Source: Candidatus Harrisonbacteria bacterium
Lineage (GTDB): Bacteria; Patescibacteriota; Minisyncoccia; UBA6257; 02-FULL-45-10c
Length of the DNA: 64,000 bases
Reading direction: 5' to 3'
Assembly: GCA_016192685.1 (NCBI GenBank)
Contig: JACPTS010000003.1
Span: 15,119 to 79,118, forward strand
The position numbers and the translations under genes are program-made. The notes beneath the pieces are model-generated. The model did no database searches. It was not told the origin of the DNA and saw only the letters and a program-made list of their open reading frames with translations. Of the stretch, positions 2,850-20,972 are shown piece by piece (the stretch's first letter is position 1; every line of letters starts with the position of its first letter).

Positions 2850-2878
2850 TTGACATTTTTTATCCCCCCGACTATATT
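2850..2878 (+). promoter_or_regulatory. sigma70-type promoter (TTGACA, 17-bp spacer, TATATT) for the clan-CD peptidase gene
   Basis: Consensus -35 TTGACA at 2850-2855, exact 17-bp spacer, -10 TATATT at 2873-2878. Confidence 0.55.
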
Positions 2879-2893
2879 TTTAGAAAACGCACT

Positions 2894-3685
2894 TTGACAG
2901 CTAAAAACGTGAAAGCAATAATTCTTGTTTTTGACCAGCCGGAAAGAAAAATAGGTTCTATGTCAGAATTTTGCTATTGCATCAAGAATAGCTCTGTTTC
3001 AAAAGCTGAAAAACTGCTTGGGTATTTAAAAGACGTCCGTTTGCTGCCGGATGATAATGTTTCTCTTTTAAAGAGCTCTTTTTTTGATAATGCCCGCCAG
3101 CTTTTACAGGAATTGCGGATGCTTGTTCAGCGGCGCAAAGATGAAGATTTGCTGTTTTATTATAATGGCCATGGCCAAAGAGGCGGCTGGAATCTCGGAG
3201 AAAATAAATTGGGCTACGGAGATAAAGTAATTCATTATTCGGAATTGGAGGATATTTTCAAGGATTTTAACGAAAAATTGATTTTTTTCAATGAATGCTG
3301 TTACGGGCTTTCTTTGAATCCATATTTGAGCAAGGCGATTTTGGGCAGGTATCTTTTGCTCAGCGGTTCAAGAAATCGCTGCGTCAGTTTTTGTAATCAA
3401 AGCATTTTAGACGTAACTCTTTCATCGTGGGAACATAGAAAGATTGCCAGGCCGAAAGTTTATTTTACAATGATTAACGATAAAAAAGATTCTTTGCTGG
3501 ACAGTGTAACCCCTACCAGAAATCCTTTGGCGGAAAATGTAGTTTTGCGACCTTGCGTAGCGCGATGCGGCACGGGCTGTTTGGCGGAAGGAATAAATTG
3601 GTCGGTTCAGAAAATTTTTTCCAATCCCAGGCCGTCTTTGCGAAGAGGCAGTGATTTAGATTATCTTATGTATCCGCCAATTTAA
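2894..3685 (+). CDS. clan CD (caspase/legumain-like) cysteine peptidase-domain protein, paralog A
   Basis: Putative catalytic dyad: His in YYNGHGQRGGW, Cys in FFNECCYG, 42 residues apart (caspase/legumain-like spacing). Shares these motifs and the C-terminal RRGsDLDYLmYP motif with the ORF at 7121-7702. The start is ambiguous (TTG 2894, GTG 2912 or ATG 2960). Confidence 0.5.
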   Translation: MTAKNVKAIILVFDQPERKIGSMSEFCYCIKNSSVSKAEKLLGYLKDVRLLPDDNVSLLKSSFFDNARQLLQELRMLVQRRKDEDLLFYYNGHGQRGGWNLGENKLGYGDKVIHYSELEDIFKDFNEKLIFFNECCYGLSLNPYLSKAILGRYLLLSGSRNRCVSFCNQSILDVTLSSWEHRKIARPKVYFTMINDKKDSLLDSVTPTRNPLAENVVLRPCVARCGTGCLAEGINWSVQKIFSNPRPSLRRGSDLDYLMYPPI

Positions 3686-3712
3686 AGCCGCAAGGCTTTT
3701 TTTGTTTGTTAC
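3686..3712 (+). terminator. weak intrinsic terminator (AGCC-gcaa-GGCT + T7)
   Basis: Short stem-loop followed by a TTTTTTT run. Confidence 0.3.
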
Positions 3713-3747
3713 CAAAATTATTGAACAGCGGTTTTAATTTATTAGAT

Positions 3748-3774
3748 TTAGCACTCTTGACGAAAGAGTGACAA
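3748..3774 (+). promoter_or_regulatory. CIRCE-like HrcA operator upstream of groES
   Basis: TTAGCACTC-N9-GAGTGACAA against consensus TTAGCACTC-N9-GAGTGCTAA (2 mismatches, exact 9-bp spacer), about 25 bp before groES. An embedded TTGACG could serve as a -35. Confidence 0.65.
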
Positions 3775-3797
3775 GTCGGGTAAAATAATAGTTAAAT

Positions 3798-4094
3798 TTG
3801 TATATGAATCTTAAACCATTAAACGACCACATCTTCCTGGAACCGCTGGAGGAAGAAAAAATTACTAAATCCGGCATTGTTTTGCCGGAAACAGCGGAAA
3901 AAGAAAAGCCAATTAAAGGCCGGGTGGTCGCCGTTGGCCCCGGAAAATTGGATGAAAAAGGGAAACGGGTGCCGATGTCGGTAAAAGTCGGAGATAAGGT
4001 TTTATTTAAAAAATACGGTCCTGACGAGCTGGAAGTGGACGGCAAAAAATATTTAGTCGGGGAGGAAGGGGATATTTTGGCGATTATTAACTAA
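3798..4094 (+). CDS. groES: co-chaperonin GroES
   Basis: Size 98 aa. Start MNLKPLNDHIFLEPLEEE and a mobile-loop region typical of the family. Immediately upstream of groEL. Confidence 0.95.
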   Translation: MYMNLKPLNDHIFLEPLEEEKITKSGIVLPETAEKEKPIKGRVVAVGPGKLDEKGKRVPMSVKVGDKVLFKKYGPDELEVDGKKYLVGEEGDILAIIN

Positions 4095-4135
4095 TGACAC
4101 ATGACTGACTACAAAAAACAACAAACAACATTTTT

Positions 4136-5773
4136 ATGGCGAAATTAATTAATTTTGACGAAAAAGCGAGGGAATCGCTTAAAAAAGGCATTGATGTTTT
4201 GGCGGCCGCGGTGCGGATGACTTTGGGTCCGCGCGGCCGGGCGGTGGTGATTGAAAGGGGTTATGGCGCGCCGCAGGTCACTTTTGACGGCGTTACCGTG
4301 GCTAAAGAAATTGAATTGGAAAATAAATTTGAAAATTTGGGCGCCGAACTTATTAAACAGGCCGCAGATAAGACTAATGACGCTGTCGGCGACGGCACGA
4401 CTACCGCGGTTGTGCTGGCTCACGCGATGATTGATGAAGGCGAGAATGCCATTAAAGAAAAAGGTTTTAATGTTATTCGGCTTGCCGAAGAATTAAAAAA
4501 AGCCAGTGAGGCAGTGGTAAGAAATTTGGAAAAACAGCGCGAGCCGATTAATGATAATAAAAAAATAGAAGAAGTGGCCACTCTTTCGGCCAAGCATCCG
4601 GAAATAGGAAAATTAATCGCGGAAGTTATGGGGAAAGTCGGCAGGGACGGAGTGGTGACCATTGAGGATTCCAATACTATCGGAAATTCTCATGAATTAG
4701 TGGAAGGAATGCAATTTGATAGGGGTTATATTTCCCCGTATATGGTTACTAACAGCGAGCGGATGGAAGCAGTGCTGGAAAATCCGCAGATTTTGGTTAC
4801 CGACAAGAAAATTTCTTCAATTCAGGAATTATTGCCGCTATTGGAAAAAGTGGTTCAAGGCGGGAAAAAAGAATTGGTTATTATAGCGGATGAAGTGGAA
4901 GGCGAAGCGCTTGCCACTTTGGTGGTAAATAAGCTTAGAGGAATTTTTAGCGTTTTAGCAGTTAAAGCGCCTGGATTTGGCGACAGAAAAAAAGAAATGC
5001 TTCAGGATATTTGCGCGGTAACCGGCGCTCAATTCATTTCCGAAGAAATCGGAAGGAAATTTGATTCGATAACTTTGAATGACTTAGGCCAAGCCCATCG
5101 GGTTGTTTCCAACAAAGACAATACTACGATTGTGGGCGGCAAGGGTGATAAATCGGAAATTGAAAAAAGAGTTGCCCAGCTTAAAAATCAATTAAAGAAA
5201 ACCGATTCGGAATTTGATAAAGAAAAATTGCAGGAACGGCTTGGGAAACTTTCCGGCGGCGTTGCCGTGATTAAAGTTGGCGCGCCGACCGAATCCGCCC
5301 AAAAAGAATTAAAGCAAAGAGTGGAAGACGCGGTGGCTGCAACTCGCGCGGCTATGGAGGAAGGAATTGTTCCGGGCGGCGGCGTTGCGCTCTTTAATGT
5401 TCTGCAGGATTTAAAATCCGGCAAAGAAGAAAATTCTGAAGCTGGAGCGGCAATGGTTATTTTAAGGCGGGCTTTAGAAGCTCCATTAACCGCGATTGTG
5501 GAAAATAGCGGAGAAAATCCGGAAAAAGTTTTGTCGGGATTGCGAAATAAAAAGGAAGTTTGGGTCGGTTTTAACGCCCATTCCAATAAAACCGATGACC
5601 TTAAAAAAGCCGGCATTATTGACCCGCTTAAAGTTACCAAAACCGCGTTTTTGAATGCGGTTTCGGTGGCGGCAACTTATTTGACCATCGGCGCCGCGGT
5701 AACGGATAAACCGGAGCCAAAAACTCCGCCAGCCGGAATGCCGCCAGGAGGAATGGGGATGGGTGAATATTAA
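4136..5773 (+). CDS. groEL: chaperonin GroEL
   Basis: 545 aa with the GPRGR motif, [12 protein letters not shown], and a C-terminal GGM repeat ([11 protein letters not shown]). Confidence 0.97.
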
Positions 5774-5869
5774 GAAGTTAAAAGGTTTTATAAAAAATCC
5801 GCTTTACAACAGGCGAGTTTTGTTTTAATATTAATTTAGCTCAATAATTATTGAATAGGAGATTCATAA

Positions 5870-6304
5870 ATGGTCATTAGTTGGGAAACAGTGCATTGGG
5901 AACTATCTATTTTATTAATATATCTCTTATTCCCGATTGGTGCAGCAGGCGCAGTCTACTCCACAGAAAAATCAGCAGAAAAAAGGAAGAAGGATCTGAA
6001 GTTTTTTAAAAATATAGTAGCCTTATGTCTTGGCTTTATGCTGTTTATATTGAGCATGTTAATCTATCCCGCGATTGGCCCATGGGAAGTTAAAGATCGT
6101 GGAGTATTTGATAATGTTGAATATACGGATACAAGAGTGAAAAAAGTGCCTGTTGGTTGGCGAACACTTCATAAAACAATACTTCATTTTTCTGACGGGC
6201 GTACCGCAGTTCTTCCAGGCGAATATCCAATAGAATTTTCTAAAGGCACACCGATTAAAGTGATGACGAAAAATGATTTTTATAAAATTGTAAAAGATCA
6301 GTAA
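5870..6304 (+). CDS. hypothetical membrane protein (144 aa)
   Basis: Two N-terminal TM helices then a soluble domain, followed by a terminator. Confidence 0.45.
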   Translation: MVISWETVHWELSILLIYLLFPIGAAGAVYSTEKSAEKRKKDLKFFKNIVALCLGFMLFILSMLIYPAIGPWEVKDRGVFDNVEYTDTRVKKVPVGWRTLHKTILHFSDGRTAVLPGEYPIEFSKGTPIKVMTKNDFYKIVKDQ

Positions 6305-6317
6305 TCATTTATTTTCT

Positions 6318-6340
6318 CCGCTTGCCAGCGGGGATTTTTT
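6318..6340 (+). terminator. intrinsic terminator (CCGCT-tgcc-AGCGG + T6)
   Basis: GC stem-loop plus a T-run directly after the stop codon. Confidence 0.55.
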
Positions 6341-6346
6341 ATTTTC

Positions 6347-6382
6347 CTTATACCCCTTATTCGTACGAATAAGGGGTATAAG
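6347..6382. repeat. 36-bp perfect palindrome cttaTACCCCTTATTCGTACGAATAAGGGGTAtaag (copy 1 of 2; 32-bp core identical to 9237-9268)
   Basis: Perfect dyad symmetry centred on GTAC. It sits between a terminator and the dCMP deaminase start. The identical 32-bp core recurs upstream of htpX. Confidence 0.8.
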
Positions 6383-6450
6383 GAATAACTTGTATTCTTA
6401 AATTACAAAGTTTATGCTTTAGAAAGTTCAATAAAAATTAAAAACAGGAT

Positions 6451-7032
6451 ATGCTGGAAAATCCAATTAGAAGACTTTCAAAAATTGAATGTGGCATGTT
6501 TTTGGCTTATGGCCTTGCGTGTCGAGGCACATGTCCGCGAGCCAGAGTTGGATGTCTGCTTATGGATAAGAACGGTTATCATATTGCAACTGGTTATAAC
6601 GGTTCTGCTCCGGGCGCGCCGCACTGCGATGATGTGCAATGCGAGTTGAAAGATGGGCATTGTGTCCGCGTGAAAGCTCATGCGGAAAAAAATGCGCTTA
6701 AGCGGGCAAAGAAATTTGGAGCATACCGCCGGCTTAAGGATGGTTATGCGTTTACGACTATCAGGCCATGCAATAGCAGTCATTGCTTTGATGATTTAGC
6801 AATATCAGGCATCAAGAATATCATTTATTTTGAGGAATACAATGCTAATCTTGTATCCGCGCATCAAGAAAAAGTATGCCAAAAAAAAGGGATTATTTTA
6901 GAAAAATTTAATCTTGATATTGTTGAACTTATACAGAAAACGCTTGATTTTCACCAAGGTCCCGGCGGACTTTTAACTGGAAAAAATAAACTCCGCATCG
7001 TGGAAGATATTCCGGAAATGATGGACCATTAA
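6451..7032 (+). CDS. comEB: dCMP deaminase (cytidine/deoxycytidylate deaminase zinc-binding family)
   Basis: HAEKNAL and PCNSSHC zinc-binding motifs (H-x-E ... PC-x2-4-C). About 190 aa. Confidence 0.8.
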   Translation: MLENPIRRLSKIECGMFLAYGLACRGTCPRARVGCLLMDKNGYHIATGYNGSAPGAPHCDDVQCELKDGHCVRVKAHAEKNALKRAKKFGAYRRLKDGYAFTTIRPCNSSHCFDDLAISGIKNIIYFEEYNANLVSAHQEKVCQKKGIILEKFNLDIVELIQKTLDFHQGPGGLLTGKNKLRIVEDIPEMMDH

Positions 7033-7034
7033 TA

Positions 7035-7058
7035 CCCCAGTTTGACTGGGGATTTTTC
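7035..7058 (+). terminator. intrinsic terminator (CCCCAG-tttga-CTGGGG + T5)
   Basis: Perfect 6-bp GC stem plus a T-run. Confidence 0.6.
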
Positions 7059-7120
7059 TTGCCAGAATTATAAATTCCGGATAAACTGAAATTAGTAATT
7101 TAATATTTTATCATTAGCCA

Positions 7121-7702
7121 ATGCGGCTCCTGATAGTAACGCATTTCAGCGATGAATTTTCCGAAGACACCGCGAAATTTTATGAATATTTTTTAAAAAT
7201 TGTTAAGCTTCCGGAAAACCAAATTAGTTTTTACGCGCTGGAAACTTTTATTCGCGGTCAGAAGATAGAAGATGTTTTCGGGGAATTAGTGGCTAAAGAT
7301 TCTCCGCTGGTTATTTATTATGGCGGACACGGCGCCCGGGACGGCTGGAAATTATCCGGAAAATATACTGCGCTTTATAAAAATATCGTGCCGGTTTTGA
7401 AAGGACAAAAAAAGCCCCTGATTTTTTTAAATGATTGCTGTTTCGGAATGGCATTGCAGGATTATTTGCCGCAATTGAATTGCCGGCATCTGCTTTTGGG
7501 ACTTTGTCCGAAAACTCTGGAGGGTTACGACTCTTTGGTTCCGGCAACTCTCAAATGCTGGAAAGAATCAAAACCGGCTGACCCGAAACAATGGGTATAC
7601 CGCCGGAATAAATTGACTTCCTTTGCTTTGCAAAAATGCGCCGATCGGCTTCGGCGCGGAGAAAATTTAGATTATCTGTGTTATCCAAGACAAACCCGCT
7701 AA
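7121..7702 (+). CDS. clan CD (caspase/legumain-like) cysteine peptidase-domain protein, paralog B
   Basis: YYGGHGARDGW (His) and FLNDCCFG (Cys) with the same spacing as paralog A. Shared C-terminal RRGENLDYLCYP motif. Has its own promoter-like TTGCCA-17-TAAACT and its own terminator. Confidence 0.5.
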   Translation: MRLLIVTHFSDEFSEDTAKFYEYFLKIVKLPENQISFYALETFIRGQKIEDVFGELVAKDSPLVIYYGGHGARDGWKLSGKYTALYKNIVPVLKGQKKPLIFLNDCCFGMALQDYLPQLNCRHLLLGLCPKTLEGYDSLVPATLKCWKESKPADPKQWVYRRNKLTSFALQKCADRLRRGENLDYLCYPRQTR

Positions 7703-7728
7703 AGGCGGGTTTTTCATTGATTTTTATT
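7703..7728 (+). terminator. intrinsic terminator (CCCGCtaaaGGCGGG + T5)
   Basis: Stem-loop overlapping the stop codon, followed by a T-run. Confidence 0.5.
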
Positions 7729-7773: not shown

Positions 7774-8697
7774 ATGGATAATGAAAAATTGCCGGAACAG
7801 ATTCAAAATAAAGAAAAAAAGACGCTCCGCCCAGTAAATCCGGGAGCAGAAAAATGGCTGAATCGTCCGGTTAAGTGCTTAGATCATGGGTTTGTTTATT
7901 TAGTGGATTATTTAGGAGATGATTCGGCTATTGCTCAAGCTGCCCGGGTTTCTTACGGCCAGGGAACTAAGAAAGTTAGCGAGGACAGGGGATTAATCAG
8001 ATATTTGATGAGGCATCGGCACACCACTCCTTTTGAAATGTGTGAGCTGAAATTTCACTGCAAAATGCCGATTTTTGTGGCACGGCAATGGATTCGGCAC
8101 CGGACTGCCAATGTGAATGAATATTCCGGCCGCTATTCGGAAATGTCGGACGAGTTTTATCTTCCAAACTCCGCTGTATTAAGAAAGCAATCACAAGGCA
8201 ATAAGCAGGGTCGGAGCGAAGAAAAATTAACTTCCGAACAGCAAGCGAAAGTGCTCCAGCTATTTAAAGAGGATTATGAGCGCCAATATAAAAATTATCA
8301 GGAGTCTCTTAATTTGGGTTTAACAAGGGAATTGGCTCGCATTGGGCTTTCAGTCGCGAATTATACCCAATGGTATTGGAAAATTGATTTACATAACCTT
8401 TTCCATTTCTTGAATCTTCGGCTGGATAACCATGCGCAGTATGAAATCCGCGTTTACGGCGAGGCAATGGCAAGGATTGTAAAAGACGCCTTCCCGCTGG
8501 CCTATGAAGCTTTTGAAGATTACCGGTTAAATGCAGGGAATTTTTCCGGTCCGGAATTAAAGCTGTTGAGATTGTTGGCTAAACGTTGGCCAATCGATAA
8601 AAGCAGCGCCAGAGAAATAGCCAGCATTAATTTTCGGAATAAAAGAGAAACCGAAGAATTCTTGAAAAAAATTGATATGCTTGGATTATTTGTTTAA
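7774..8697 (+). CDS. thyX: flavin-dependent thymidylate synthase ThyX
   Basis: ThyX signature RHRTANVNEYSGRYS (RHRxxxxxS). 307 aa. RBS AAGGAGG upstream. Confidence 0.9.
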   Translation: MDNEKLPEQIQNKEKKTLRPVNPGAEKWLNRPVKCLDHGFVYLVDYLGDDSAIAQAARVSYGQGTKKVSEDRGLIRYLMRHRHTTPFEMCELKFHCKMPIFVARQWIRHRTANVNEYSGRYSEMSDEFYLPNSAVLRKQSQGNKQGRSEEKLTSEQQAKVLQLFKEDYERQYKNYQESLNLGLTRELARIGLSVANYTQWYWKIDLHNLFHFLNLRLDNHAQYEIRVYGEAMARIVKDAFPLAYEAFEDYRLNAGNFSGPELKLLRLLAKRWPIDKSSAREIASINFRNKRETEEFLKKIDMLGLFV

Positions 8698-9320: not shown

Positions 9321-10229
9321 ATGAATCAATTTCTTTATAAAAATAAAACTTTGAATCTTTTTAAGACCTGGCTGTTATTTGCCGGATTTTTGGGATTTGT
9401 AATAGCGTTTGGTTTTGCTTTTGCCCAGATTTACCAAAATTCCTCTATTCTTTATTTTGCGGTTATTTTGAGCGTTGGAACGGCGCTTTTCAGCTACTGG
9501 TTTTCCGATAAAATGGTACTCGCCATGGTTAAAGCCAAGCCAGTTTCCAAGGATTCCGCGCCGGAACTTTATGATTTGGTTTCGGATTTGGCGAAAGAAG
9601 CGAATTTACCCTTGCCAAAAATTTATATTGTTGAGGAAAATGCTCCAAATGCTTTTGCCACCGGCCGGAATCCGAAACATGCGGTAGTGGCGGTAACCAC
9701 CGGAATATTGCGGAAATTAAATAAAGATGAGCTTAGAGGGGTGCTGGCGCATGAACTTTCTCATGTTGCCAATCGCGATATGCTGGTAGGAACCGTAGCG
9801 GTGATTTTAGTCGGATTTATTTCTATTGCTTCTGATTTTTTTATGCGGTCAATGCTTTGGGGCGGAATGCGAAGAGATAGCCGAAATCAAGGAGGGACGA
9901 ATATTATTTTTCTGATAATTGGAGTGATTTTGGCAATGCTGGCGCCGTTGGCGGCGACTTTAATGCGTCTGGCAATTTCCAGAAAGCGGGAACTTTTAGC
10001 GGATTCTTCCGGAGCTCTTTTGACTCGGAAACCGGAAAATCTGGCGAGCGCTTTAATAAAAATTTCTTCTGATTCAACGCCAATGCTCCGTGCCAATAAT
10101 GCTAATTCCCATCTTTGGTTTGACGACCCGTTTGACAATAAGCCGCGTACTCCGTTTTTGCATAAATTATTCATGAGCCATCCGCCAACAGAGGAAAGAG
10201 TAAAGAACCTGCGCGGGTTAAAAATTTGA
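9321..10229 (+). CDS. htpX: zinc metalloprotease HtpX (M48)
   Basis: HELSHVANRD (HExxH), four TM segments, and C-terminal motifs of HtpX-type M48 proteases. Confidence 0.85.
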   Translation: MNQFLYKNKTLNLFKTWLLFAGFLGFVIAFGFAFAQIYQNSSILYFAVILSVGTALFSYWFSDKMVLAMVKAKPVSKDSAPELYDLVSDLAKEANLPLPKIYIVEENAPNAFATGRNPKHAVVAVTTGILRKLNKDELRGVLAHELSHVANRDMLVGTVAVILVGFISIASDFFMRSMLWGGMRRDSRNQGGTNIIFLIIGVILAMLAPLAATLMRLAISRKRELLADSSGALLTRKPENLASALIKISSDSTPMLRANNANSHLWFDDPFDNKPRTPFLHKLFMSHPPTEERVKNLRGLKI

Positions 10230-15558: not shown

Positions 15559-16200
15559 ATGAATGACCTGCTGCTTTTAATTTTCCAATTCCTGGTTTTT
15601 ATTTTTTCCGTGATGGTACATGAAGTTTCCCACGGTTTAATGGCCCTAAAATTAGGCGATGACACCGCTAAAGATTTGGGCCGGTTAAATTTGAATCCAG
15701 CTAAACATTTGGATTTTTTTGGCTCTTTTGTCTTGCCGTTCATTTTAGTGATTACTAACAGCCCGGTGATTTTCGGCTGGGCCAAGCCGGTGCCTTATAA
15801 TCCGAATAATTTAAAAAATCCGAAAATTGGAGCGGCTTTAATCGGGGCGGCCGGACCGTTAAGTAATATTTTCATTGCGGTAATTTTTGGGATTCTATTG
15901 CGCCTTGCCGGCCCGGCTGTTGAACTGAATCCGAATCTGGCTCCGCTTATCCTGTTTTTTAATGTCATTATTTTTATTAATTTATTATTGGCGGTATTTA
16001 ATTTGGTTCCGATTCCGCCGCTGGATGGCTCTAAATTGCTTTTTGCCTTACTGCCATCTCAATCTTATCGCCTCCAGCGGCTTTTGGAACAATACGGACT
16101 CGTTATTTTACTTTTATTTTTATTTATCGGTTTCGGATTGCTCATTCCGATTATTCAAGGATTGCACGCTGTTTTAGTCGGCCGCTGGTTGACGCTATAA
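15559..16200 (+). CDS. site-2 protease family (M50) intramembrane metalloprotease
   Basis: HEVSHGLMA (HExxH) in TM1 and the LDG motif (PIPPLDGSKLL) in a later TM helix. Confidence 0.75.
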   Translation: MNDLLLLIFQFLVFIFSVMVHEVSHGLMALKLGDDTAKDLGRLNLNPAKHLDFFGSFVLPFILVITNSPVIFGWAKPVPYNPNNLKNPKIGAALIGAAGPLSNIFIAVIFGILLRLAGPAVELNPNLAPLILFFNVIIFINLLLAVFNLVPIPPLDGSKLLFALLPSQSYRLQRLLEQYGLVILLLFLFIGFGLLIPIIQGLHAVLVGRWLTL

Positions 16201-16236: not shown

Positions 16237-17439
16237 TTGATAATTAATTTAATGAAAAAGCGCTTGCGGTGCTTATTGATATTTTGTTTGCCAATTTTTT
16301 TAATTAAGGAACCAGTTTTTGCCGCTTCTCTTTCAAATGAACTTCAAGCTCTGGAAAAAGTAACAGACGTATTATTTACGATTGAAAAATTTTTCCATAA
16401 AGAAGTTGATCTCAAAAAATGCGTGGAAGCAACTCTCCAAAGGGGAATTTCAGAATGCCTGGACCCTTTTAGCCAATATTTAACCAAAGAAGAAGCCGCC
16501 AGCCGCGAAGAAGAAATAAGCGGCCACCTCAGCGGCGGCATTGGCATAAGGTTAATGGGACGAAGAACCAAAGAACATAATGAAATTATTATTGTTGCCG
16601 TATTAAAAAACACCCCGGCCGAAAAAACCGGCCTAAAACCCGGCGATGTAATAGTCGCGATCTCTTCAACTTCTAAAAAAGAAAATCAAATTTCTGCCCA
16701 CGGCTTGGCTATGAATGAGGTAGTTAAACTTATCAGAGGGGAAATTGGCACCGAGGTATTGCTGATAATCTCGCGCGAAAATGAGATTAAAGAATTTACT
16801 TTGGCGCGAGCCGATATAAAATTAGTTACAGTTGAATATAAGATGCTGGATTCTCAAGCCGGTTATCTCCAAATAATTGAATTCGGCTCGGAAACCGGAG
16901 ATGATTTTCAGGCGGCCGTCAGCAGTTTATCGGCAAGCGGCATGAAAGTAATGGTTCTTGACCTTAGGAATAATCCGGGCGGCTTGCTGAGGTCGGTTCT
17001 GAATATTAATTCCTTATTCGCGAAAGATGGCGCTTCGCTTTTATATACGGCCGGTCGTAATGACCTCCCGCATCAGTATGTGCCGAACGACGATAAAATC
17101 GGCCAATATAAAAATCTGAAAGTCGTGGTTTTGATTAATGAATACAGCGCTAGCGCCGCGGAAATCATGGCTGGCTGGCTGAAAAACGATTGCGGCGCGC
17201 CGCTAATCGGTAAAAAAACTTTCGGTAAAGGATCAGTTCAAATAAACATTGAGCTGAATGACGGCTCCGTACTTCACTTGACTGTGGCTGAATACTTTGT
17301 CGGTAAAGACAGAATTAAGGTTCATGAAATCGGAATCAGCCCCACTATTGAGTTAGAAAATCCGAAATCAGTTAAATCCGAAGCGGATGATTTACAGCTA
17401 AAAAGAGCGCTGGAAGAAGCAAATAAATTGATAAGGTGA
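16237..17439 (+). CDS. ctpA: carboxyl-terminal processing protease (S41, CtpA-like) with PDZ domain
   Basis: Signal peptide, PDZ segment ([11 protein letters not shown]) and S41 core motifs ([16 protein letters not shown]). Confidence 0.85.
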
Positions 17440-18869: not shown

Positions 18870-20972
18870 ATGGCCAGACAATATCCCCTGGAAAAAACAC
18901 GCGATATTGGAATTATCGCGCATATAGACGCCGGTAAAACCACCGTTTCCGAACGGATTCTTTTTTATACGGGAGTTTCGCATAAAATCGGCGAGGTGCA
19001 TGAAGGGGACACGGTGATGGACTGGATGGAACAGGAACGGGAGCGGGGCATTACCATTACTTCCGCCGCTACTACCTGTTTTTGGGTTCCTACCTATCAG
19101 CATGGTGATAAAAAATTTGAACACCGGATTAATTTAATTGATACTCCCGGGCATATTGATTTCACGGTTGAAGTAAAACGGTCTTTGCGCGTTCTGGACG
19201 GCGCCGTGGTGGTGTTTGACGGAGTGAGCGGAGTAGAGCCGCAGTCAGAAACCAACTGGCGTTACGCGGATGAATATAAAGTGCCGCGGCTTTGTTTTAT
19301 CAACAAATTGGACCGCACCGGCGCCAGCTTTGAAGGCAGTTACCAATCTATTTTGGAGCGATTAACGCCCAATGCGGTGCCGATTCAAATTCCTATCGGT
19401 TTGGAAAATAATTTTGAAGGAGTGGTGGATCTTTTAAAAATGAAAGCTTATCAATTTGAGGGAGAAAAAGGGGAAAAAATCAAAGAAATAGAAATTCCAG
19501 CCAATCTTTTGGAAGAAGCCAAAAAGCACCGCCACGCCTTAATTGAAAAAGTAGTTGAGCAGGATGATGATTTAATGTCCCATTATCTTGAGGGCAGGGA
19601 GCCGGACTTGAATTCTTTAAAAAGAGTGCTTAGAAAAGCAACAATTGCCAATACTCTGGTGCCGGTTGTTTGCGGTTCTGCCCTTAAGAATAAAGGCATA
19701 CAGCTGGTTTTAGACGCGGTCATAGATTATTTGCCTTCGCCGCTTGATTTGCCGCCGGTAAAAGGGCTGGATTTAAAATCCGGCGCGGAAATTACCAGGG
19801 AAGCCAGCGATGAGGCGCCGCTGGCCGCGCTCGCTTTTAAAATTGCCGCTGACCCGTTTGTCGGCAGTTTAACTTATTTCCGGGTTTATTCCGGAGTAAT
19901 GAAGCGAAGCACTTATGTTTTAAATTCCACGAAAAATATCAAAGAGCGGATTGGCCGGATGGTGCGGATGCATGCCAATCAGCGGGAAGAAGTGGAAGAA
20001 ATCCATGCCGGAGATTTAGGCGCCATTGTGGGATTAAAAGATACCACTACCGGAGACACGCTTTGCGATGAAAATAACCCGATTATTCTGGAAAAAATTA
20101 TTTTTCCCGAGCCGGTTATTTCTTTGCGCATTGAGCCGAAAACCAAGGCCGACCAGGAAAAAATGGGCATGGCTTTACGGCGTCTTAGTGAAGAAGACCC
20201 GACCTTCCGGGTGACCGGCGATATTGAAACCGGTGAAACGATTATCTGGGGAATGGGCGAATTGCATTTGGAAATTATTGTTGACCGGATGAAGCGTGAA
20301 TTTACCGTGCTTGCCAATGTGGGCCGTCCGCAGGTTGCTTACCGCGAAACTATTAAAATGGAAGCGGAAGCGGAAGGGAAATACATCAAGCAATCCGGCG
20401 GCCGCGGCCAATATGGACACGTGGAATTAAAAGTTGAACCGATGGAACGCGGCAAAGGATTTGAATTTGTGGATGATATCAAAGGAGGAGTGATTCCAAA
20501 AGAATTTATCAAACCGGTTGAAAAAGGGGTTATTGAAGCTATGCAAAAAGGCGTGGTTGCCGGCTATCCGTTAAATGATATGAAAGTTACTTTATATGAC
20601 GGTTCCTACCATGAAGTTGATTCGTCTGAAGCAGCTTTTAAAATTGCCGGTTCCATTGCTTTGCAGGAAGCGGCTAAACGGGCTAAACCGGTTTTGCTTG
20701 AGCCGATTATGAAAGTCCAAACTTTAGTGCCTTCAGAATTTATGGGTGACATTACCGGTGATTTAAGCTCTAAACGGGGGAAAATTGAGGCCATGACCGA
20801 CCGCGCCAACATTAAAGTCATTGACGCGAAAGTCCCGCTTTCGGAAATGTTCGGTTACGCGACTAAGCTCCGTTCCATGTCGCAAGGCCGCGGCAATTTT
20901 AATATGGAATTTTCCCACTATGAAGAAGTGCCGAATAATATTGCCGAATTGATTAAGGAAGGGAAAAAATAA
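18870..20972 (+). CDS. fusA: elongation factor G
   Basis: G-domain motifs ([21 protein letters not shown]) and EF-G domains II-V. 700 aa. Confidence 0.97.

Follow-up and report, generated by a model that had tools for sequence, protein, structure and literature searches.

Proteases of clan CD, among them the caspases, metacaspases, legumain, separase and GPI8, have central parts in cell death, immunity and protein maturation; in prokaryotes, their relatives have been described chiefly as large multidomain proteins of conflict systems or of multicellular bacteria. Here we describe two genes, designated A and B, that contrast with this pattern. They lie in a 64,000-nucleotide stretch of contig JACPTS010000003.1 of Candidatus Harrisonbacteria bacterium (assembly GCA_016192685.1, positions 15,119 to 79,118 of the forward strand), to which we refer as the window, and their family offers a bare catalytic domain of about 190 amino acids (aa) with an invariant dyad, encoded by a core gene of very small genomes and often by several ancient paralogs that share a conserved block next to the chaperonin genes. 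We conclude from the sequences and from structure models that A and B belong to clan CD (caspase-hemoglobinase fold; CL0093), with fold, dyad and profile homology all in agreement. On the same grounds we regard them as members of an undescribed minimal clan-CD family, familiar in its fold and chemistry and characteristic of bacteria of the Candidate Phyla Radiation (CPR).

The two open reading frames (ORFs) and their motifs are given below in window coordinates, with secondary structure taken from AlphaFold2 (AF2) models.

2894..3685, plus strand: ORF A, from the ORF list; the A-type paralog preceding groES, with a caspase-fold core and two insertions
2972..2980, plus strand: CxC motif of A (Cys22, Cys24), partnered with the Cys-rich segment PCVARCGTGC near residues 215-224 (~3551-3580)
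3170..3175, plus strand: YYNGHG motif of A, with the predicted catalytic His88-Gly89 (258-aa numbering) at the end of strand beta3; His codon 3170-3172 verified
3299..3301, plus strand: Cys131 of the A motif FNECCYG, the predicted nucleophile and second Cys of NECC, after strand beta4; codon verified
3638..3676, plus strand: C-terminal family signature of A, LRRGSDLDYLMYP, the last strand beta6 plus a short helix; codons verified
7121..7702, plus strand: ORF B, from the ORF list, 193 aa from an ATG; the B-type paralog following groEL, a minimal six-stranded caspase-fold domain
7328..7333, plus strand: YYGGHG motif of B, with the predicted catalytic His70-Gly71; His codon 7328-7330 verified
7439..7441, plus strand: Cys107 of the B motif LNDCCFG, the predicted nucleophile and second Cys of NDCC, with Asp105 at the Cys-2 position; codon verified
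7649..7687, plus strand: C-terminal family signature of B, LRRGENLDYLCYP; codons verified

An original prediction, made from the letters of the window, had named these two ORFs as paralogs sharing HG...C motifs and a C-terminal signature, and the codons bear this out. In a single BLASTP comparison, A and B align at 27% identity across almost the full length of B (E=9e-19), which identifies them as true paralogs; we take them to be ancient. The uniform His-to-Cys spacing of 42 aa that had also been claimed needs correction, with the distance being 43 residues in A and 37 in B, both within the caspase/legumain range.

The assignment to clan CD draws on searches of several kinds. Scanned as single sequences against Pfam, A and B match Peptidase_C14 at 16.0 bits (E=0.01) and 15.4 bits (E=0.015) respectively; A has further sub-threshold matches to Raptor_N (E=0.06) and to the NCBIfam model caspase_w_EACC1, and B to Peptidase_C25. 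Neither protein reaches the curated thresholds of C14, C13 or C25, and PF01650 (C13, threshold 22.8 bits) gives no match to A or B even at E<=1. A narrow profile (A1) of 19 sequences, comprising A, B and the homologues nearest to them, finds PIGK as the best match among solved structures (E=0.005), with both catalytic residues aligned, and a profile from a 135-sequence alignment of relatives (A2) matches metacaspase-4 at 5e-7, GSU0716 (3bij) at 2e-5, PIGK at 4e-5 and Raptor at 8e-4, with weaker matches to legumains, peptide asparaginyl ligases, MALT1, PorU and gingipain. When the 135 members are themselves scanned singly against Pfam, 30 match C25, 19 match C14 (E<=0.01), 15 match Raptor_N and four match C13; the sole match outside clan CD is a marginal one to RNA_pol_Rpb2_4, in 1/135. 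Searched against 1.84 billion proteins, the family profile also brings in P0127 and P0130, both long, at about 4e-11; their Pfam matches to Peptidase_C14 (4e-48 and 5e-18) mark them as bona fide members of that family.

The AF2 models agree with the profiles. Both have the clan-CD topology, a six-stranded alpha/beta sandwich with the His after strand 3 and the Cys after strand 4, and in Foldseek searches of the PDB the top 28 matches of B are all clan CD, including metacaspase 9, Yca1, MCA4, PIGK, legumain, peptide asparaginyl ligases, caspase-3/7/8 and CED-3. For A the top 50 are all clan CD, among 71 matches at E<=1e-3. The clan-CD identity put forward in the original prediction is therefore borne out by the profile searches (C14, C25, Raptor_N, C13, metacaspase-4, GSU0716, PIGK, legumain, MALT1 and gingipain), and the structure prediction that it had called for leads almost exclusively to clan-CD structures. 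Within the clan, both proteins are bare catalytic domains, continuous and compact at 193 and 258 aa, in which neither a prodomain nor an obvious p20/p10 linker of the C14 kind is seen; nor do they have the signal peptide, membrane anchor or legumain C-terminal prodomain of secretory-pathway C13 enzymes, and the protein ends 10-13 residues after beta6.

The family is large. An exhaustive run of the 19-sequence profile against 1.84 billion cluster representatives yields 483 matches at E<=1e-3, of which 116 reach E<=1e-10; almost all stand alone and measure 170-300 aa, with the B-type members spanning 187-194 aa. It thus comprises at least 483 clusters at 50% identity and is typical of CPR bacteria, contrary to the earlier suggestion that such proteins are unusual in reduced genomes. 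The source-given names seen for members, including those from cluster look-ups of 20 representatives, are all 'hypothetical protein', and the one organism named in these look-ups is a Patescibacteria group bacterium. Neither the window proteins nor the scanned members reach a Pfam-A (2025) or NCBIfam (2026) cut-off, and full-text literature searches returned no description of the family. A 1089-aa protein (P0137) is matched by the family profile in seven stretches, with HG motifs recurring at a period of about 139 aa and no Pfam C14 match, and may consist of seven tandem degenerate caspase-like modules.

Conservation across the family centers on the dyad. Only three columns of the 135-sequence alignment are invariant, His70, Gly71 and Cys107 (B numbering, used here throughout for the family), and in a separate 159-sequence alignment used for residue counts His70 is present in 158/158, Cys107 in 159/159 and Gly71 in 155/159. 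His70-Gly71 is invariant in the 19-sequence alignment as well. The dyad is therefore invariant among about 159 sequences that are otherwise about 20% identical, and the His/Cys pair whose absence from homologues would have counted against the original prediction is present. Asn104 is kept in 137/159 and the Cys-2 position is Asp or Glu in 121/159. Several aromatic columns are well conserved (Trp147 in 147/159, Trp76 in 146/159 and Tyr86 in 144/159), as are those of the C-terminal signature, with Gly180 in 156/159, Asp184 in 136/159 and Arg178 in 135/159; L183 is also conserved.

ORF A is 263 aa long from the TTG at 2894 and 258 aa from the GTG at 2909. The GTG is the more likely start, because the public gene call (P0015), which is 100% identical to ORF A, is 258 aa long and because the relatives share an N-terminus; all of them start with M-[KRH]-A-I-I-L, corresponding to strand beta1. 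We note that TTG 2894 falls inside a TTGACA promoter-like hexamer (site 2894-2922). Read from GTG 2909, the N-terminus of A (MKAIILVFDQPE) is strand beta1 itself and not a signal peptide. Hydrophobic blocks precede both dyad residues (LLFYYNGHG and LIFFNECC). His88-Gly89 is invariant in alignment A4 and in 24/24 A-type sequences, and Cys131 is likewise invariant in A4 and the A-type sequences and is the position at which profile alignments place the catalytic Cys of PIGK and metacaspase-4. The AF2 model of A has a predicted local distance difference test score (pLDDT) of 83, with the core above 90 and two low-confidence insertions. The two A-type CxC motifs, about 195 residues apart, fall within these poorly modelled insertions; their Cys columns are kept in 24/24, 21/24, 22/24 and 21/24 A-type sequences and are lacking in the B-type proteins, and they may form a structural metal (zinc) site specific to the A-type subfamily.

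The NCBI hypothetical protein HYY86_03550, from a metagenome-assembled genome (MAG) of Candidatus Harrisonbacteria, matches ORF B at 100% identity. The model of B is of higher confidence (pLDDT 95.1, predicted template modelling score 0.91), with the elements ordered b1-a1-b2-a2-b3-[HG]-hairpin-a3-b4-[C]-a4-b5-a5-b6; H70 follows strand E63-68, C107 follows E100-105, and strand b6 is E178-180. As in A, the dyad residues follow hydrophobic blocks (LVIYYGGHG and PLIFLNDCC), the N-terminus (MRLLIVTHFSDE) is strand beta1 itself and not a signal peptide, and profile alignments place the catalytic Cys of PIGK and metacaspase-4 at Cys107. The ratio of nonsynonymous to synonymous substitution (dN/dS) of B is about 0.09 against a 70%-identical orthologue (at locus L001), and B is therefore under purifying selection.

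The genes next to A and B in the window are those given in the original prediction, with groESL after A, and dCMP deaminase and ThyX flanking B.

3798-4094: groES, downstream of A
4136-5773: groEL, downstream of A
6451-7032: dCMP deaminase, 5' flank of B
7774-8697: ThyX, 3' flank of B

Loci were sampled by a genome scan with a 16-sequence subset and a single peptide pattern ([LFI]INDCC...), which gave eight genome and 20 metagenome loci and under-samples the taxonomic range; a separate word-indexed homologue search with the 135-sequence alignment gave 20 proteins. Orthologues of B (48-72% identity) invariably lie between dCMP deaminase and thymidylate synthase, within a block ordered RmuC / nucleotidyltransferase (NTase) / small gene / groES / groEL / dCMP deaminase / B / Thy / 143-aa gene / (lemA) / htpX / hrcA-grpE-dnaK, and the position of B is unchanged where ThyA and DHFR replace ThyX (L018 and L021). 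This replacement is a non-orthologous displacement, with ThyX in the window and in L001-L006, and ThyA plus DHFR in L018 (7670-8949) and L021 (6554-8073). In more distant CPR genomes (23-38% identity; Patescibacteria group or 'bacterium' MAGs), B-like genes directly follow groEL and precede lemA-htpX, and four loci (L010, L011, L012 and L022) have tandem pairs of B-like genes right after groEL. The A-like genes are invariably found between the NTase / 229-aa gene pair and groES (the window, L007, L013, L016, L023, L024, L034 and L041), and a third subtype lies upstream of rmuC in L013, L028 and L041. One metagenomic CPR contig (L041, 6001-11146) has three members, in the order [member] / 57-aa gene / RmuC / NTase / 217-aa gene / [A-type] / [A-type] / GroES, and in L024 a tandem pair follows the NTase gene and a 112-aa gene.

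Positional orthology is seen in more than 15 distinct loci, and groESL or rmuC-NTase lies within 6 kb of a member in about 14 of the roughly 20 distinct loci with usable flanks; the remainder are in unrelated contexts, including an Aenigmatarchaeota archaeon and a Uhrbacteria contig. From this conserved gene order we conclude that A and B are vertically inherited core genes of CPR bacteria rather than recent insertions. The original prediction had described them as inserted among housekeeping genes, whereas their positions in the CPR block are those of old residents. A functional link of B to thymidylate (dTMP) synthesis was considered and rejected, as the association is confined to a Harrisonbacteria-like clade and the distant B-type genes follow groEL and precede lemA-htpX; we read the arrangement as one in which the nucleotide genes moved in around B.

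Several features of these regions deserve mention in their own right. The gene run at 388-2837 of the window, conserved in many CPR loci, encodes RmuC, a 225-aa NTase-fold protein with weak NTP_transf_2 and MntA-like matches, and a 229-aa protein that has no family match. The third gene of this run occurs in two forms, of 216-229 aa or 112-149 aa, and visual inspection suggests that it may encode a small domain of the restriction-endonuclease-like (PD-(D/E)xK) type. A family member outside the CPR is encoded in a Candidatus Aenigmatarchaeota (DPANN) contig (L019, 4033-5019; 328 aa), beside a phage-type integrase, a PIN gene and an NTase gene, neighbors that suggest horizontal transfer. Another is found on a contig labelled Acutalibacteraceae (L017, 1256-2017; GC 0.64), which may be mis-binned or a genuine non-CPR occurrence. 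Downstream of B, and on the same strand, are envelope and quality-control proteases: HtpX (M48) at 9321-10229, an M50 site-2-protease-like protein at 15559-16200, and an S41 protein with a PDZ domain at 16237-17439, which is a C-terminal processing protease; EF-G is at 18870-20972.

The transcription signals around the two genes are as follows.

2850..2878, plus strand: promoter-like site of ORF A, TTGACA-17-TATATT, with 11/12 matches; a consensus match only
3684..3699, plus strand: terminator-like hairpin and T-run directly 3' of ORF A, which parts A from the CIRCE-controlled groESL unit
3748..3774, plus strand: CIRCE-like HrcA operator before groES, TTAGCACTC-N9-GAGTGACAA, with two mismatches; 0.01 such sites expected by chance in the window
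7035..7114, plus strand: dCMP-deaminase terminator (7035-7051) followed by weak promoter-like sites (7042-7114) before B, from a signal scan
7694..7710, plus strand: terminator-like hairpin ACCCGC-TAAAG-GCGGGT and T-run at the end of B, overlapping its stop codon; read by eye and absent from the scanner list

Judged from these signals, it is plausible that A and B are each separate transcription units. That each has its own promoter and terminator, as originally claimed, is likewise plausible for both, given the 11/12 site and hairpin of A and the weak promoter-like sites and hairpin of B. The layout upstream of B, a terminator and then a promoter, recurs at two orthologous loci (L001 and L018), and it is all that an alignment of the sequence upstream of B orthologues has in common, with no conserved operator found. 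The CIRCE-like operator overlaps a groES promoter-like site at 3757-3786. A is not under CIRCE, because the operator lies downstream of its terminator, and a scan of the 64-kb window finds this single site (3748-3774) and none before B. Co-regulation of A or B by HrcA, which would make them direct members of the heat-shock regulon, is thus unsupported.

As to what the proteins do, we favor the view, with a probability of roughly 0.6, that A and B are cytosolic, constitutive, single-chain Cys-His endopeptidases of this minimal clan-CD family typical of CPR bacteria. Cys107 (Cys131 in A) would be the nucleophile and His70 (His88 in A) the general acid/base, and the dyad would attack the peptide bond through an acyl-enzyme intermediate. 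The Cys-2 position contributes to the S1 pocket in metacaspases (Asp211 of TbMCA2), in legumain (Glu187) and, as Gln283, in caspase-1, and the acidic residue there in the window proteins (Asp105 in B, Glu in A) would help to form S1 as it does in metacaspases, PIGK and legumain. By this analogy, a basic residue or Asn at P1 is more likely than a caspase-type Asp. In organisms whose protease set is reduced, they would serve in limited proteolysis of cytosolic proteins, for housekeeping or regulation; this role best fits their behavior as core genes, and the groESL/htpX neighborhood is suggestive. It is also reasonable, by analogy with caspases, that the paralogs work as homo- or heterodimers through the C-terminal strand b6, since two or three paralogs lie side by side in many genomes and the C-terminal signature R-x-G-x-x-L-D forms b6, the dimerization strand of caspases.

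Several points weigh against this assignment of fold and function. The template modelling scores (TM-scores) to solved clan-CD structures are only 0.4-0.6, so the family would be a divergent branch, and both window proteins fall below every Pfam and NCBIfam clan-CD gathering threshold (for C14, 16.0 and 15.4 bits against 21.4). Clan CD also holds transamidases and ligases (PIGK and the peptide asparaginyl ligases) and the non-catalytic Raptor. Peptidase activity is predicted from sequence and models, and the proposed P1 preference depends on one aligned residue and on the published structures of legumain and metacaspase. Finally, the association with groESL and htpX may reflect inherited gene order and not functional coupling.

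A bolder form of the endopeptidase reading, which we regard as speculative and rather doubtful, is that the family makes up a CPR-wide (and sporadically DPANN) cytosolic protease system, with from one to three or more minimal paralogs in the RmuC-groESL-htpX block acting as homo- or heterodimers in quality control or regulated proteolysis and partly replacing missing proteases, and with a domain that is among the smallest of clan CD and near the ancestral linker-less form. The same fold and Cys-His chemistry could instead carry out transpeptidation, ligation or another acyl transfer in place of hydrolysis, as in GPI8/PIGK and the plant peptide asparaginyl ligases. PIGK is indeed the best solved relative of the 19-sequence profile, with its catalytic residues aligned; both Foldseek searches place it and the peptide asparaginyl ligases near the top (8imx_K has a root-mean-square deviation of 3.5 A over 190 columns), and the His-Cys spacing of 37-43 residues is legumain/PIGK-like. 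The broader profile, however, favors metacaspase-4 and GSU0716, and no gene for an acceptor-providing partner is conserved beside A or B. PIGK and the ligases are secretory-pathway enzymes that work with accessory subunits or prodomains, neither of which A and B have, and most clan-CD enzymes are hydrolases, so that we consider acyl transfer unlikely. That the two ORFs are a chance motif match in an alpha/beta fold unrelated to clan CD (flavodoxin-like or amidotransferase, for example) would account for the single-sequence Pfam scores below threshold and for the few flavodoxin-like or Rossmann-like structures with weak scores at Foldseek ranks 29-50 for B, but it is effectively refuted by the agreement of single-sequence, narrow-profile and broad-profile searches and two independent structure predictions on clan CD, and by the exact alignment of the catalytic residues in the profile alignments.

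Proteases of caspase-like type are frequent components of prokaryotic conflict systems (PMC7159879, PMC8195603), and A and B could be effectors or activators of an anti-phage, abortive-infection or toxin-like system, triggered by infection like the proteases of gasdermin, type III CRISPR and CHAT systems. The A-type genes always follow an NTase-fold gene and a small uncharacterized gene, near RmuC, and the archaeal member adjoins an integrase, a PIN gene and an NTase gene. Against PADLOC-DB 2.0, however, A, B and the 229-aa and 144-aa neighbors have no match at E<=1; among the six neighbors tested, the NTase matches at noise level only (0.04), and RmuC resembles the RmuC module of a model for defense-associated reverse transcriptases (DRT), which speaks for a defense role. 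Searches of viral contigs, phage genomes and plasmids found no relatives of the family, the neighbors of A and B are housekeeping genes with no defense partners among them, and the proteins have no fused sensor or effector domains and are under strong purifying selection. The recurrence of the same position in lineages at 23-38% identity, among groESL, dCMP deaminase, thymidylate synthase and htpX, is the pattern of a core gene and not of a variable island. A defense function is therefore quite improbable, and of the roles the original prediction had floated, both this one and the processing of secreted substrates are disfavored, there being no PADLOC match, phage or plasmid relative, partner gene or signal peptide. 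We think it very improbable, too, that A and B are non-catalytic caspase-fold scaffolds (pseudo-peptidases) resembling the N-terminal domain of Raptor and binding partners such as chaperonin clients. Sub-threshold Raptor_N matches do recur (E=0.06 for A; 15/135 members), Raptor structures rank high for A, and the genes lie beside groESL; but His-Gly and Cys are invariant in about 159 sequences at about 20% identity, the pattern expected for catalysis, whereas in the pseudo-orthocaspases, as described in PMC6426788, the dyad is replaced by Tyr/Ser.

If the endopeptidase reading is correct and the proteins are active, they would constitute a new MEROPS-level family, a minimal scaffold on which to study how caspase-fold proteins become specific and are activated when prodomains and linkers are absent, and an additional protease in the sparse proteostasis toolkit of CPR bacteria. 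What is less expected is how far the architecture is reduced, that the gene belongs to the CPR core, and that an arrangement of several paralogs is conserved next to groESL.

A and B can be compared with several described families. They resemble GSU0716 of Geobacter sulfurreducens (3bij) and the orthocaspases and metacaspases (MEROPS C14B, PF00656) in fold and in having His-Gly behind a hydrophobic strand and Cys behind the following one, and share with C14B proteins an Asp at Cys-2 (NDCC here, DSCHSG there); with GSU0716, the family-profile alignment takes in the downstream conserved Trp region. The window proteins are nevertheless shorter, at 190-260 aa against at least 285 aa, and lack the long post-His loop of metacaspases, and the alignment to metacaspase-4 needs two target insertions between His and Cys. 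The metacaspase His-Cys spacing is about 53-56 residues, and the short spacing, the absence of a p20/p10 linker and the distinct C-terminal R-x-G-x-x-L-D signature set A and B apart from both metacaspases and orthocaspases.

In legumain and PIGK the His-Cys spacing is 41-42 residues, and A and B also share with legumain and GPI8/PIGK (MEROPS C13, PF01650) an acidic residue at Cys-2 and a single-chain domain on a six-stranded sheet, with PIGK and legumain among the top Foldseek matches of both models. The similarity to PIGK is at the profile level only (E=0.005 and 4e-5), however, and unlike legumain and GPI8, A and B are bacterial and, as predicted, cytosolic, with no signal peptide, C-terminal prodomain or membrane anchor; the Asn42/Arg44/His45 pocket motif of legumain is not recognizable in B. 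The motif layout of caspase-3 (MEROPS C14A) is SHGEEGIIFG ... KPKLFIIQACRG, and the compact HG-x3-G-[aromatic/aliphatic] hairpin, short helix and K-P-L-I-F-x-x-x-C-x-G of the window proteins resemble it. Caspase-3/7/8, caspase-4/11/1 and CED-3 appear in the Foldseek lists, whereas at the sequence-profile level the similarity to caspases falls short of significance (caspase-4, E=1.5); A and B differ further in having Asp or Glu in place of Gln at Cys-2 and in having no prodomain or cleavage linker, and the Arg-Gln-Arg triad that binds Asp in caspases, looked for by eye only, was not recognized. The N-terminal domain of Raptor (PF14538), a eukaryotic scaffold with no known peptidase activity, is related through recurrent weak Pfam matches, profile matches at 8e-4 and high Foldseek ranks for A, and is set apart by the invariant dyad of the family and its stand-alone proteins. 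In size, the B-type proteins are among the smallest clan-CD domains and are comparable to the C80 cysteine protease domain (CPD).

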